From assembly GCA_963753595.1 (NCBI GenBank), contig CAVWCX010000007.1:118424-182423 (forward strand): a stretch of DNA of 64,000 bases. The letters are read 5' to 3'. Positions 16,433 to 35,397 of this stretch are shown here, piece after piece (position 1 is the first letter of the stretch; each line of letters opens with the position of its first letter). The notes below the pieces were generated by a model, which saw only the letters and a program-made list of their open reading frames with translations, did not search any database and had not been told where the DNA came from. This DNA comes from Candidatus Methanoperedenaceae archaeon (GTDB lineage: Archaea > Halobacteriota > Methanosarcinia > Methanosarcinales > Methanoperedenaceae). The position numbers were made by a program, and so were the translations under genes.

Positions 16433-16800
16433 ACACGCTTCAATAAGAGTGATTGCATAAAGATTTTATGATTGGATAGAGCAGGCGTTGGATAGGTGTG
16501 TGTGGGAGTGACATAAAAAAATGCCTGCTCATACTTATGATAATTACAATACTATTTAACTATTTTGGTTGGTCGTAATAAATACCGATAAAATATATGT
16601 ATTCTAGAAATAATTGCAAAGCTCTGGTAACGAAATAATTCACAAAAAAGGAAAAATTATTAAACTTACTTTGTGCGGGTCAAGGGGTAGAGAACGCCCA
16701 ACGCCTTTAGGCTTAGGCTGAATCGTACCCCTTGGTAGTTATTACTTTCACATCGTCCTATCATAAAAGATATATGTTCCTTAAAGAATGTCAATGCTGC

Positions 16801-17958
16801 ATGAAAAAAACGTATCAATTCAGGATATACCCGAACAAGAATCAGGAAGTGATACTGAACAGAACCCTCTCTACATGCAGACGGCTTTATAATAATTCTC
16901 TTGCAGAACGGAAACAACAGGCAGAGCTTAACCGATTGAAAAAGGATTTTCAGTTATTCCCGTGGGGTAAACCTGAATGGATAAATAAATATGACCAGAT
17001 GCTTGACCTGACAGCTACCAAAACACCATATCAAAAAGAAGTATTCTCTCAGGTACTCCAAGATGTGATTAAACGAGTTGACCACAGTTTCAAGAATTTC
17101 TTTAAAGGCTTCGGGTATCCCCGGTTTCAGGGACGGGATAGGTATAACAGTTTCACATATCCGCAATCGGGCTTCAAAATCGAAGATGGAAAACTTAATC
17201 TGTCGAAAATCGGAAGTATCAAGATCATCCTGCATAGACCGATTGAAGGCATAATCAAGACCTGTACCATCAAAAAGGATATTGACCAGTGGTATGTTTC
17301 GTTTTCCTGTGAAATTGAAGACCCGATCCCCGTTGAGATCAAGACCAAAACAGGTATTGACGTGGGCTTAATCGACCTGATAACCCTGAGCAACGGGGAA
17401 CAGGTCAAACCGCCAAAATTCCTGCGAGAATCAGAGAATAATCTGACACAAGAACAGAAAAGGTTAAGCCGGAAAAAGCTCAGTTCAAAGAACCGAAATA
17501 AGCAGCGGGCGATAGTATCCAGGGTACATAGAAAAATCAGGAATCAAAGAAAAGATTTTGCTCATAAGACCAGCAAGGTTCTTGTGGATTCCTATGACCG
17601 TATCGTGTTTGAAGATTTGCAGATAAAAAACATGGTGCAAAACCATCATTTTGCTAAATCCATCTCCGATGCTGGCTGGTATCAATTAATGCAATTCACA
17701 AAATCCAAGGCAGAATGTGCCGGGAAAATAGTTGAATTCGTTAATCCCACAGGAACATCTCAGACCTGTATTTGCGGTTTCCGTGTCCCGAAAGACCTTT
17801 CAATGAGGGTACATAGTTGTCCTTCCTGTGGTCTTGTCATGGGAAGAGATCAGGTGTCTGCAATATTAATCGAGAATAGATGTACGGTAGGAACTACCGG
17901 AATTTACGCCCGTCAAGGATATCTCAGCGGAGTATCAATGCAGCGGGACGCTCCGTGA
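16801..17958 (+). CDS. tnpB: RNA-guided endonuclease TnpB
   Basis: KTYQFRIYP, RuvC GIDVG / FEDL / RD, Zn-finger TSQTCICG..CPSCG; start may be 16774 or 16801. Confidence 0.93.
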   Translation: MKKTYQFRIYPNKNQEVILNRTLSTCRRLYNNSLAERKQQAELNRLKKDFQLFPWGKPEWINKYDQMLDLTATKTPYQKEVFSQVLQDVIKRVDHSFKNFFKGFGYPRFQGRDRYNSFTYPQSGFKIEDGKLNLSKIGSIKIILHRPIEGIIKTCTIKKDIDQWYVSFSCEIEDPIPVEIKTKTGIDVGLIDLITLSNGEQVKPPKFLRESENNLTQEQKRLSRKKLSSKNRNKQRAIVSRVHRKIRNQRKDFAHKTSKVLVDSYDRIVFEDLQIKNMVQNHHFAKSISDAGWYQLMQFTKSKAECAGKIVEFVNPTGTSQTCICGFRVPKDLSMRVHSCPSCGLVMGRDQVSAILIENRCTVGTTGIYARQGYLSGVSMQRDAP

Positions 17959-17963
17959 CTTTA

Positions 17964-19694
17964 GAGGCTGTCCGATAATTAACTGAAAAACTCTCCGATT
18001 TTTCCATAATTCCAAATTATAATCAAGCCCATTGCTTGCGAAATAATTTCAAAACATTTATATCATACAAATACAGTTTTTAAATAAATATGACTTTCTA
18101 TAAAGACCTCAAAGACCAGGAACTGCTCTTACCTCCAAACATTCGTGATATGATACCAAAAAATCACATCTGCCATCTGGTTGATAAAATAATCCAGAAT
18201 ATGGATCTATCTGATATCGAAAAGGAATACGAAGGAGCAGGACACCCCGCATATCATCCAAAACTCATCCTCAAGCTTCTGATATTGGGTCAAATAGATG
18301 GAGTATGTTCATCAAGGATAATAGCAAAAAATGCTAGAGAGAACGTGGTATACATTTACCTTGCAGGTCTTCTCCAACCTGATTTCAGGACGATAAGCGA
18401 CTTTCGGAAAAACAATCTTGAAATGGTCAAATCATCATTTCATGAAGTTGTAAAATTCGCAAAAGATCTTGGCATGGTATCTCTTGGTCACATATGCATT
18501 GATGGAACAAAAATAAAAGCCAATGCATCAAATCACAGTGCAGTAACAAAAGATGATTTTTTAAAATTGAAGGAACTCGTTGAAAGAGAACTGGAAGAAG
18601 GCATCAGAATAGACGAGGAAGAGGACAGGATCCATGGTGATAAGAATATCGATGAGCTGCCAGATAACATCTTTGACAAAACGATAGCGGAAAAATTGAA
18701 AGAGAAATATCAGTCAGGGAGCAAAGAACAAAAAGAAAAAATCAAGAAACAGGTTGATAAGATCGAAAAAGAAATCGAAAAATCAGAGAGTGCCATCAGT
18801 GCTACTGATCCTGAAAGCAGGTTCATGCCAAATAACAAGAAGGTCACTGAATATTCCTATAATCCTCAGATAACAGCGGATTCTTCTTTTGGGATAATCA
18901 TTTCCAACGATGTCACGTCAGAGGTAAGGGATGCAAATCAGCTTCAGCCTCAGATAATACAGGCAGAAGAGAATGTTGGAACCCTTCCGGAAGGTACGAA
19001 GGTGAGTGCTGATAATGGATATTCAAGCAGCAAGAATCTCAAATTCATGAAGAAAAAAAAGCTGGATGGCTATATCCCGGATGAAAAAACGGCATCAAAC
19101 CTGAACAAAAATGAAGGAAAACCAGAAAACCCATTCGGTAAAGAGAATTTCGATTATGACCCGATAGAAGATTGTTTCATTTGCCCCAATAATCAGAAAC
19201 TGACGTTCCGTTTTGAGTATGTGGATATTGCCAAAAACAGAAATGTGTGGATTTATAAAGGCACTCAGTGTAAGCAATGTCCTGATCGTAAAAAATGTTC
19301 AAAGAACTCTCGGGATGGAAAAGTGATCAAGAATTATGAGGGAATGGAAGAGGAAAGAAGGAAGATGGCTTCTAAATTGATGTCAAAAGAGGGAGCATTG
19401 ACATATCAGACGAGGAAAAAGGTCGTGGAGTGCATCTTTGGTCATATCAAGAGGAATCTTGGGTTCAGGGAATTTCTGTTGAGAGGGATTAATGGGGCGA
19501 AAATTGAGTTCAATCTTACCTGCATTGCTTCAAACCTGAGAAGAATGTGGAACTTTTTGAATGGATTTATTGAAGTAAGATGTTAAATTGGAGAAGAAGT
19601 ATCGTTTTTTTTTTGTTTGTCTGAAAAATTAGGCAATTATTGCTGTAACATTGCTTGAATAAACTGTATTTGATATCAAATGTCGGTCAACCTC
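17964..19694 (+). mobile_element. IS1182-family insertion sequence
   Basis: Imperfect TIR GAGGCTGTCCGATAATT / AAATGTCGGTCAACCTC; 5-bp duplication CTTTA at 17959-17963 and 19695-19699. Confidence 0.88.
18090..19586 (+). CDS. IS1182-family DDE transposase
   Basis: G.PAYHP, PDFRTISDFR, IDGTKIKANAS, TDPESRFM, ADNGY, VECIFGHIK. Confidence 0.93.
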   Translation: MTFYKDLKDQELLLPPNIRDMIPKNHICHLVDKIIQNMDLSDIEKEYEGAGHPAYHPKLILKLLILGQIDGVCSSRIIAKNARENVVYIYLAGLLQPDFRTISDFRKNNLEMVKSSFHEVVKFAKDLGMVSLGHICIDGTKIKANASNHSAVTKDDFLKLKELVERELEEGIRIDEEEDRIHGDKNIDELPDNIFDKTIAEKLKEKYQSGSKEQKEKIKKQVDKIEKEIEKSESAISATDPESRFMPNNKKVTEYSYNPQITADSSFGIIISNDVTSEVRDANQLQPQIIQAEENVGTLPEGTKVSADNGYSSSKNLKFMKKKKLDGYIPDEKTASNLNKNEGKPENPFGKENFDYDPIEDCFICPNNQKLTFRFEYVDIAKNRNVWIYKGTQCKQCPDRKKCSKNSRDGKVIKNYEGMEEERRKMASKLMSKEGALTYQTRKKVVECIFGHIKRNLGFREFLLRGINGAKIEFNLTCIASNLRRMWNFLNGFIEVRC

Positions 19695-19711
19695 CTTTAG
19701 CCCGGAGCAGT

Positions 19712-20371
19712 TCACAGGAATCCCAGTGTATCTTCTATACGGCTAATCTCAGGGCTGGTGGTTTCTTCGCCCACCACATAGCCTTTTACATTGGCAAGAA
19801 GCCCGGAACCAACAAGAGGTGAGCCAAAATTAACCGTCCCGATATTGACTGGTAATTTGAACAGCTCTTCAATTACCGAAATCTCAGCAGGGCTGGATTT
19901 AGGATGCACGAGTACACCTTTGTTCGTGGCTATACCTGCCATTCCCACGGTCTTTAAACCGCCAAGAGTGCCTCGCTGGACTTCGACACCGAGAGTTTTC
20001 TGAATTATCTTAATGGACTTTTCTGAGAGATCCGGATGAACAAGGGCTGCCGTATCATTGGCTAAAATAAGATTTCCTGCTGCGTTATGCTCTTCAGTCA
20101 ACCTTGCTGCCTTGATATGTTTCCTTATGGCCCTGATCTCTTTTTCCAGGACAAAGCCTGCTACCATCATCCCGTTATTGTTTCCCCGCATAAGTGAACC
20201 CAGAATGGCACTTCCGCTTATTGCAGTGCGGCAGGCTACAACGCCCAGTGATTCTTCCAATTCCCCTATGGTTTCGGCAGATGTATCATAAGGTACAAAT
20301 ACAAATTCATCTGTACATGTTGCAAAAACGCCCAGTACGGGGCTCCCTGAAATATTTAATTTACGTTTCAA
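19712..20371 (-). CDS. eif6: Translation initiation factor 6 (aIF6)
   Basis: GNLILANDTAALVHP, GTVNFGSPLVGSG, TTSPEISRIE; follows L31e. Confidence 0.95.
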   Translation of the reverse strand: MKRKLNISGSPVLGVFATCTDEFVFVPYDTSAETIGELEESLGVVACRTAISGSAILGSLMRGNNNGMMVAGFVLEKEIRAIRKHIKAARLTEEHNAAGNLILANDTAALVHPDLSEKSIKIIQKTLGVEVQRGTLGGLKTVGMAGIATNKGVLVHPKSSPAEISVIEELFKLPVNIGTVNFGSPLVGSGLLANVKGYVVGEETTSPEISRIEDTLGFL

Positions 20372-34973: not shown

Positions 34974-35397
34974 GAGAGACTGCAATGCTATGTGAAAATT
35001 AGAGCTCGCAATAGGATTTTTACGACAGAAAATCAAAAAAGTCATGCGACCCTAGAAGTATAGACATGTTCCATTTCATGGTGTTTATTTTCCTAATCGC
35101 TATTCTTTTTGGTTAAATACGTACCCCAACTTAACACCACGATTTTTATTCGGGATTCCTATCGCCTATACGAGCATAACACCTCTATCGCCTTCAGTCA
35201 CCGGTATACCCCGTACGATGTACGAGGCCTGTATAACTGCATCAGCCCCCTATTAGACCCTAATTCTCCACTATATACTATTTGAATTAAATGGTTTTGT
35301 GTTGCACACTGGCTTTAATACCAGGACGAATTGAAACATTCTCCTTTTTCCCAATAATTTAATTACATCAACATACAATTAGAACCGGAGTGAAATT

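Follow-up and report, generated by a model that had tools for sequence, protein, structure and literature searches.

An IS1182-family insertion sequence found repeatedly at the centre of TnpB right-end hairpins and IS200-end-like repeats in a Methanoperedenaceae archaeon

Insertion sequences (ISs) that target repetitive extragenic palindromic (REP) sequences belong to IS110, IS3 and other families, and IS1397 is one of them. ISPpu9, ISPpu10, ISPa11, ISPsy8 and ISRm22 are likewise described as entering dispersed small G+C-rich hairpins (PMC1525189), and a likeness between REPs and the subterminal hairpins of IS200/IS605 elements has been noted (PMC3333891). Among the closest described systems is IS1272/TnSha1 of staphylococci, whose transposase belongs to the same IS1182 family as the one studied here. 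IS1272 is reported to target inverted repeats or hairpins that have little primary sequence in common, with repeated insertions, in both orientations, into one hairpin (PMC4923244, PMC5678879), and a 2015 review cited in both papers states that some IS1182 members target palindromes. According to the same two papers, IS1272 cleaves within the stem or at its foot and deletes the hairpin partly or wholly, and no target duplication is made. Here we describe an IS1182-family IS in a 64,000-nucleotide stretch of DNA (the window, positions 118424-182423 of contig C7) from the archaeal assembly of a Candidatus Methanoperedenaceae archaeon (2.89 Mb in 37 contigs), where it lies inside the right end of a TnpB element. 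It differs from IS1272 in that the hairpin is kept, the cut is at the centre of the loop and 4-5 bp are duplicated, and also in having a clear sequence bias in its target (CYCCG arms and an A/T centre). In our reading, which is very probably correct, this is an active and recently expanded IS that integrates on the dyad axis of small hairpins carrying this motif, hence repeatedly in IS200/IS605-type ends, where it is likely to disable the TnpB copy that it enters.

The IS in the window is bounded by GAGGCTGTCCGA... and ...TCGGTCAACCTC, which are imperfect inverted repeats, and its transposase, of 498 residues, matches NCBIfam NF033551 (IS1182) across residues 8-488; the score is 403.5 bits and the cut-off 270. 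The Pfam scores are 93.6 bits for DDE_Tnp_1_6 and 52.8 bits for DUF772. The parts of the IS and of its junction are as follows.

17950..17963 (+ strand): inner half of the right-end hairpin, comprising the left arm GCTCCG, the stop codon TGA and the first CTTTA; from sequence, fold and covariation in 23 ends
17964..19694 (+ strand): the IS1182-family element itself (1,731 bp), of which the genome has 11 copies
17964..17983 (+ strand): left terminal inverted repeat, which agrees with the reverse complement of 19675-19694 at 14 of its 20 positions
18090..19586 (+ strand): IS1182 transposase gene, 498 amino acids; NCBIfam transpos_IS1182, Pfam DDE_Tnp_1_6, DUF772 and DDE_Tnp_1
19675..19694 (+ strand): right terminal inverted repeat, pairing with 17964..17983
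19695..19699 (+ strand): second CTTTA of the target duplication, the first copy being at 17959-17963
19700..19715 (+ strand): outer half of the right end, comprising GCC, the right arm CGGAGC and the terminal AGTTCAC; from the common terminus and the divergent flanks beyond it

The sequence that follows the second CTTTA, at 19700-19715, is GCCCGGAGCAGTTCAC. Removal of the IS together with one CTTTA restores a 6-bp stem, GCTCCG/CGGAGC, with an 11-nt loop in which the duplication is exactly central, and the rebuilt right-end hairpin has a DNA folding energy of -7.8 kcal/mol. The first-pass annotation of this DNA, which was made from its letters, had proposed that an IS1182 element sits in the loop of the TnpB right-end hairpin and that its excision would rebuild this stem followed by AGTTCAC. 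Direct reading bears out both proposals, and places the insertion on the dyad axis.

The host has a TnpB gene, a conserved terminus and subterminal hairpins on the left and on the right, and it lacks terminal inverted repeats; in these respects it fits a TnpB-only, IS1341-type member of IS200/IS605. Its other features are listed here.

16665..16669 (+ strand): CTTAC, the presumed transposon-adjacent motif, just 5' of the left end; its role as a motif is putative
16670-19715 (+ strand): the whole TnpB element, 3046 nt including the IS
16670..16760 (+ strand): left end with nested hairpins, outer CAAGGGGTA/TACCCCTTG and inner GCC-TTTA-GGC (16703-16712); from the sequence
16813..17958 (+ strand): tnpB, 381 amino acids, open and full length; Pfam OrfB_IS605, Cas12f1-like TNB and HTH
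19716..19735 (+ strand): would-be omega-RNA guide flank, coinciding with the 3' end of eIF-6, a gene on the minus strand; the guide role would follow from the logic of Karvelis 2021

The 381-residue open reading frame (ORF) scores 307 bits against NCBIfam guided_TnpB (NF040570; cut-off 100), and its residues 3-360 match solved chains of ISDra2 TnpB (8bf8/8exa, 8h1j) with an E-value of 5.7e-49. Alignment to the AI-designed homologue 9yyg points to the letters D, E and D within GIDVGL, FEDL and GRDQ, which we take to be the catalytic residues of TnpB. The stop codon TGA, at 17956-17958, lies directly 3' of GCTCCG (17950-17955) and the 1.7-kb IS begins after it, in agreement with the earlier statement that the insertion leaves tnpB intact. 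The genome contains seven right ends of this tnpB family, all of which terminate in AGTTCAC with divergent flanks thereafter, and we therefore place the right boundary at 19715. When homologous ends from relatives are included, most finish in AGTTCAC and a few in AGTTTCAC, and the flanks again diverge beyond the terminus. The left boundary was placed at 16670 because the copies in this genome start after ..TAC or ..GAC; the left end is common to other copies from GGGGTCAAGGGGTAGAGA onward. The inner hairpin of the left end (16703-16712) carries the same CTTTAG letters as the right-end loop, as had been pointed out.

A BLAST search found 11 copies of the IS in the genome, at 99.4-100% identity to the window copy and with 0-11 pairwise differences in 1,731 columns. 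Four of them occupy the identical nucleotide in four of the seven tnpB-family right ends: that of the window (C7), those on C10 and C36, and that of a mini-element on C37. At each of the four, the IS is bordered by a separate CTTTA/TAAAG duplication, and the outer flanks all differ. The occupied host elements are mutually 83-87% identical, with the exception of the pair on C10 and C36, which are 99.4% identical and contain the IS in opposite orientations. The divergence of the hosts, together with the inversion in the one similar pair, indicates four separate insertions. All four right ends that have the consensus arms and loop are occupied, and the three empty ones deviate from the consensus: the left arm is CTCCA on C15, the loop is CTTTC on C30, and the second end on C37 reads GCTTTG..AACC. 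The landing of this IS in tnpB right ends is beyond chance, and is real targeting. The perfect left-end hairpin of tnpB elements (GCGCCC/GGGCGC) is unbroken by the IS in each of the five copies that were read across the entire left end.

It is barely credible that these loci derive from a single ancestral composite of TnpB element and IS that was then copied, or from misassembled joins between the IS and right ends. The near identity of the C10 and C36 hosts, the draft state of the genome and the presence of three copies with swapped flanks are what either would lead one to expect, but the IS has opposite orientations on C10 and C36, the remaining hosts differ by 13-17% whereas the IS copies differ by 0.7% or less, and all the outer flanks differ, each junction being short-range and having its own duplication.

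The mini-element on C37 (67430-67558) consists of a tnpB left end joined to the last approximately 130 nt plus the right end, with no gene between them, and its hairpin is also occupied by the IS.

The flanks of all IS copies were collected. In addition to the four copies in tnpB right-end hairpins, five of the 11 (after re-pairing of flanks, which is described below) lie in hairpins of a family of repeats approximately 90 nt long, and one further copy (C7:13868) lies in an imperfect hairpin whose tail, judged by eye, resembles this family, and which we regard as a degenerate look-alike. The repeats consist of a G+C-rich stem with an A/T centre, a few bases, GTGACTG, and a tail ending near CATGC. 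One subtype (ACAGGCCTCG...) is found directly 3' of a tnpA remnant in this genome (C1:30915-31112), and the same subtype is the conserved region downstream of intact Y1 tnpA genes of the 150-residue class in two relatives. We therefore conclude that the repeats include copies of an IS200-type end. Only one copy of the 11, C1:160751, is in an ordinary gene, inside an ORF resembling a multihaem cytochrome, and the chance event that the first-pass annotation had allowed for, in which other copies would be at unrelated and unstructured sites, is thus not what the genome contains.

A profile search with nhmmer gave five clear members of the repeat family that are unoccupied, and four weaker, candidate matches. 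One of the clear members is in the window:

35159..35240 (- strand): unoccupied IS200-end-like hairpin repeat; nhmmer match C7:153582-153663, E 1.6e-13

The other four (C1:36611, C1:41408, C34:12708 and C36:145524) are intergenic. One subtype of the repeat has a second hairpin, GCATCC..GGATGC, on its other side, and similar repeat tails flank IS copies in other Methanosarcinales (loci L160, L161, L169 and L183). The possibility that the tnpB right end and the IS200-type end are alike as sequences was considered and rejected, since 867 of 2000 shuffled sequences gave an alignment that was as good or better. Two ORFs beside two of the target hairpins were also considered as parts of another element, and were rejected because they are mutually unrelated and have no family match. 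A 400-residue transposase-like ORF with weak ISH6/IS6 matches (C1:33097-34299, or L002:4441-5643) adjoins one IS copy, and the upstream flank of the ORF recurs, 100% identical, on C6 and C28.

The insertions follow a simple rule. They are on the dyad axis of the hairpin, and an odd loop gives a duplication of 5 bp while an even loop gives 4 bp. Of the 11 copies, eight have matching 4-5-bp duplications on their own flanks, and at all eight of these self-consistent sites both halves of the hairpin are kept, so that the replacement of the stem-loop seen with IS1272 does not occur; the loop-centred outcome corresponds to 'pathway c' in the model of PMC5678879. A perfect stem of at least 5 bp is centred on the duplication at five of 10 rebuilt sites, compared with 0.64% of 199,726 random axes. 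Structure alone is insufficient as an explanation, because the genome contains 10,299 perfect hairpins (stem of at least 6 bp, loop of 3-13) and few are used. G+C-rich stems are found in 263 of these hairpins, and 138 of the 263 have A/T-rich loops as well. The sequence bias was measured on 41 half-sites from this genome and its relatives, some of which are duplicates or come from kin: C is found at positions -12, -11 and -10 in 31, 32 and 32 of them, and A at positions -2 and -1 in 25 and 26.

We propose that the DDE transposase recognizes, and would integrate at the dyad axis of, small palindromes with G+C-rich arms and an A/T-rich centre, the arm motif typically being CYCCG at 2-3 nt from the cut, and that the central 4 bp of an even loop or 5 bp of an odd loop would be duplicated as a result. 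The non-coding sites in this genome that fit such a description appear to be almost all IS200/IS605-type subterminal hairpins, namely the right ends of TnpB elements and the copies of the repeat, including the end downstream of an IS200-type tnpA, and the IS would land there repeatedly for this reason. The suggestion in the first-pass annotation that this IS1182 may specifically target IS200/IS605 hairpins therefore stands as far as targeting is concerned (nine of the 11 copies). Specificity for IS605 ends as such and specificity for the stem and loop motif are inseparable here, because the two classes of site nearly coincide outside genes.

The search was extended to 53 genomes of the family at the DNA level and to 301 genomes across the class at the protein level. 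Among the 53, DNA matches to the IS are found in 10 and the core of its end in 12, this genome being included in both counts. In 10 further genomes of the genus, 17 left junctions have a legible flank, and by eye 16 of them, all but the one in G028, show a common signature; this is an arm CCCCG or CCTCG together with GTCAC/GTGAAC, GATGCC or the 3' end of tnpA. Three of the junctions (in G003, G010 and G031) abut the outer half of variant tnpB right ends with CCCAA/TTGGG stems, of which intact examples exist elsewhere, although at G010 and G031 the pieces of IS are truncated fragments and the empty sites could not be rebuilt. Loose ends of contigs in one soil run (X1) gave two more sites of the same kind. 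The class-wide protein search gave matches in 38 of the 301 genomes. The 29 loci from this search were judged by eye: examples in other genera sit in centred palindromes, and one copy in a relative within Methanosarcinales is in a perfect 8-bp palindrome approximately 130 nt from a tnpA homologue. A DNA search with the right end of the IS in five relatives yielded nothing usable, and a protein-based locus search of the genome contigs yielded one locus only. The one relative matched that has a name is Candidatus Methanoperedens nitroreducens, by which we judge the genus. We also scanned metagenomes with an 18-nt end core, which gave 40 loci, but this core proved to be common to many unrelated IS1182 elements; five of the 40 look like the Methanoperedens type by the sequence after the repeat, and four of those five have end-like flanks by eye. 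None of these metagenome loci entered the statistics.

These comparisons bear on a second possibility, which is that this line of ISs has become specialized for IS200/IS605 ends themselves, in a dedicated form of hyper-parasitism. Such an IS might recognize hairpins of the TnpA type, perhaps while the DNA is single-stranded at a replication fork, and might gain from silencing or immobilizing the host element, or from having a safe landing site. We consider this quite unlikely. The count of nine copies in such ends or look-alikes (10 with the degenerate site) argues for it, as do the occupation of all four consensus right ends, the same association in other genera of the order, and the fact that the loop-centred position is kept when the stems vary, as with CCCAA/TTGGG in G003 and G010. 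However, relatives within IS1182 insert in unrelated hairpins, for example terminators (PMC4923244), one copy here is in a gene, a related genome (G047) has free right ends, and any benefit to the IS is hypothetical. A bolder version, in which the IS1182 lineage of Methanoperedens/Methanosarcinales is a specialized parasite of IS200/IS605 ends that recognizes the hairpin used by the Y1 transposase, has filled the consensus right ends in a burst and switches off TnpB homing by parting the omega-RNA scaffold from its guide, is unlikely; if true, it would represent a conflict between transposons that acts on an RNA-guided nuclease.

Motif-directed integration, which we prefer, would have consequences for the omega-RNA of the host element. 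For ISDra2, the RNA bound to TnpB is reported to start at the 3' end of tnpB, to continue through the right end and to finish in a guide of approximately 16 nt taken from the flank (PMC8612924), and TnpA proteins of this family bind subterminal imperfect palindromes (PMC3201880). Across 23 homologous ends, the right-end hairpin described here shows changes on both sides in seven of nine pairs, and two stems upstream of it covary too; the intact end folds better than shuffles, with a z of -2.64. The insertion is likely to split the last covarying stem of the presumed omega-RNA before the element boundary. The presumed transcript would lose the right arm and the last 7 nt of the scaffold, with the guide moved 1.7 kb away, and TnpB would in this way be disarmed, as the first-pass annotation had suggested. 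The insertion would also break the presumed hairpin substrate of a Y1 TnpA at the right end, so that an occupied TnpB copy can, most likely, neither home nor be excised. The TnpB elements may be immobile in any case, because the genome has only fragments of Y1 tnpA: for the Y1 (HUH) TnpA it gave three partial Y1_Tnp matches only. Elsewhere in the genus, full-profile Y1_Tnp matches are found within approximately 1 kb of matches to the tnpB 3' end on the same contigs (G009:C1, G007:C19 and G028:C237). In five RNA runs, one of them so classed by guess, approximately 7% of the sampled words were present.

Several observations weigh against our reading. Poor hairpins are found at two of the 11 sites, one of them within the multihaem-cytochrome-like gene. 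The profile of the repeat family counts the very sites that went into building it, and since the tnpB right end aligns with the IS200-type end no better than shuffles do, their treatment as a single class of TnpA recognition site is unsupported. G047 contains one IS copy and yet none of its six listed tnpB right ends is occupied, which shows that occupancy is not obligatory. Rfam gave no match on either the broken or the intact copy of the end, and the RNA run X18 contributed a single contig, which comes from the tnpB of a relative and is uninformative on expression or on RNA ends. The assembly is a draft, with a completeness of 92%. The flanks of C1:31157, C1:39970 and C35 pair only across copies, the last being at a contig end, and this reflects either recombination between copies or mis-assembly.

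Selection also has to be considered. Those hairpins that bear the motif but belong to neither of the two families lie mostly in long ORFs or look ribosomal-RNA-like by eye, and part of the apparent specificity could come from the selective loss of insertions that do harm. If survivorship were the whole explanation, insertion would be random and copies would persist only in harmless DNA such as transposons. The location of the remaining motif hairpins would suit this, as would the disruption of a gene by only one copy of the 11, but survivorship cannot explain why four independent insertions share one nucleotide position, occur in both orientations and always fall on the dyad axis, and a large amount of other non-coding DNA lacks the IS. 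We regard it as a very improbable account.

The three copies with cross-paired flanks are C1:31157-32886, C1:38241-39970 and C35:1-1730. Genes for ribosomal protein S7 (on C35) and EF-2 (on C1) are found on the two sides, and these two genes are usually adjacent in archaea.

Targeting of hairpins or palindromes by the IS1182 family is already known from IS1272. What is new is the class of target, IS200/IS605 ends in an archaeon, and the loop-centred footprint of 4-5 bp; the consequence for the TnpB guide unit is likely to be new as well. REP-targeting ISs differ in that their targets are host REP repeats rather than functional TnpB-element ends, with no consequence for a guide RNA. Our literature search, whose scope excluded subscription journals, ISfinder and TnPedia, found no report of IS1182 in TnpB or IS200 ends, or of any IS in IS605 ends. 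The locus offers a natural case in which one transposon would repeatedly disable another at the place where the TnpA hairpin substrate and the guide RNA overlap. It indicates that a readable sequence rule and a loop-centred footprint can go together in IS1182 elements that seek hairpins, and it ties IS1182 elements to IS200/IS605-type hairpins, which resemble REPs. The target hairpins could also provide simple test substrates for how a DDE transposase finds a hairpin. For annotation the case suggests caution, in that an open tnpB need not mean a working unit of TnpB and guide.

The TnpB element in the window sits exactly at the stop codon of the neighbouring eIF-6 gene (minus strand; window 19712-19717 and 16665-16669), which has a Pfam score of 232.5 bits. 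The last letters of the right end provide the TGA of eIF-6; if we have rebuilt the joint correctly, TAA would stand there in the empty site, and the end of the protein (..G F L) would be unchanged. Contigs from two soil runs (X5 and X7) jump exactly 3046 nt at this place (16667/16670 to 19714/19717), although the shorter side of the joint is only 20-21 nt; these gaps would fit, weakly, an allele without the whole element. Finally, a distant gene for an IS1182-type transposase in G018 (contig C79, locus L184) lies beside a tnpB fragment comprising residues 237-381 only, and may have inserted inside tnpB and not in its end.

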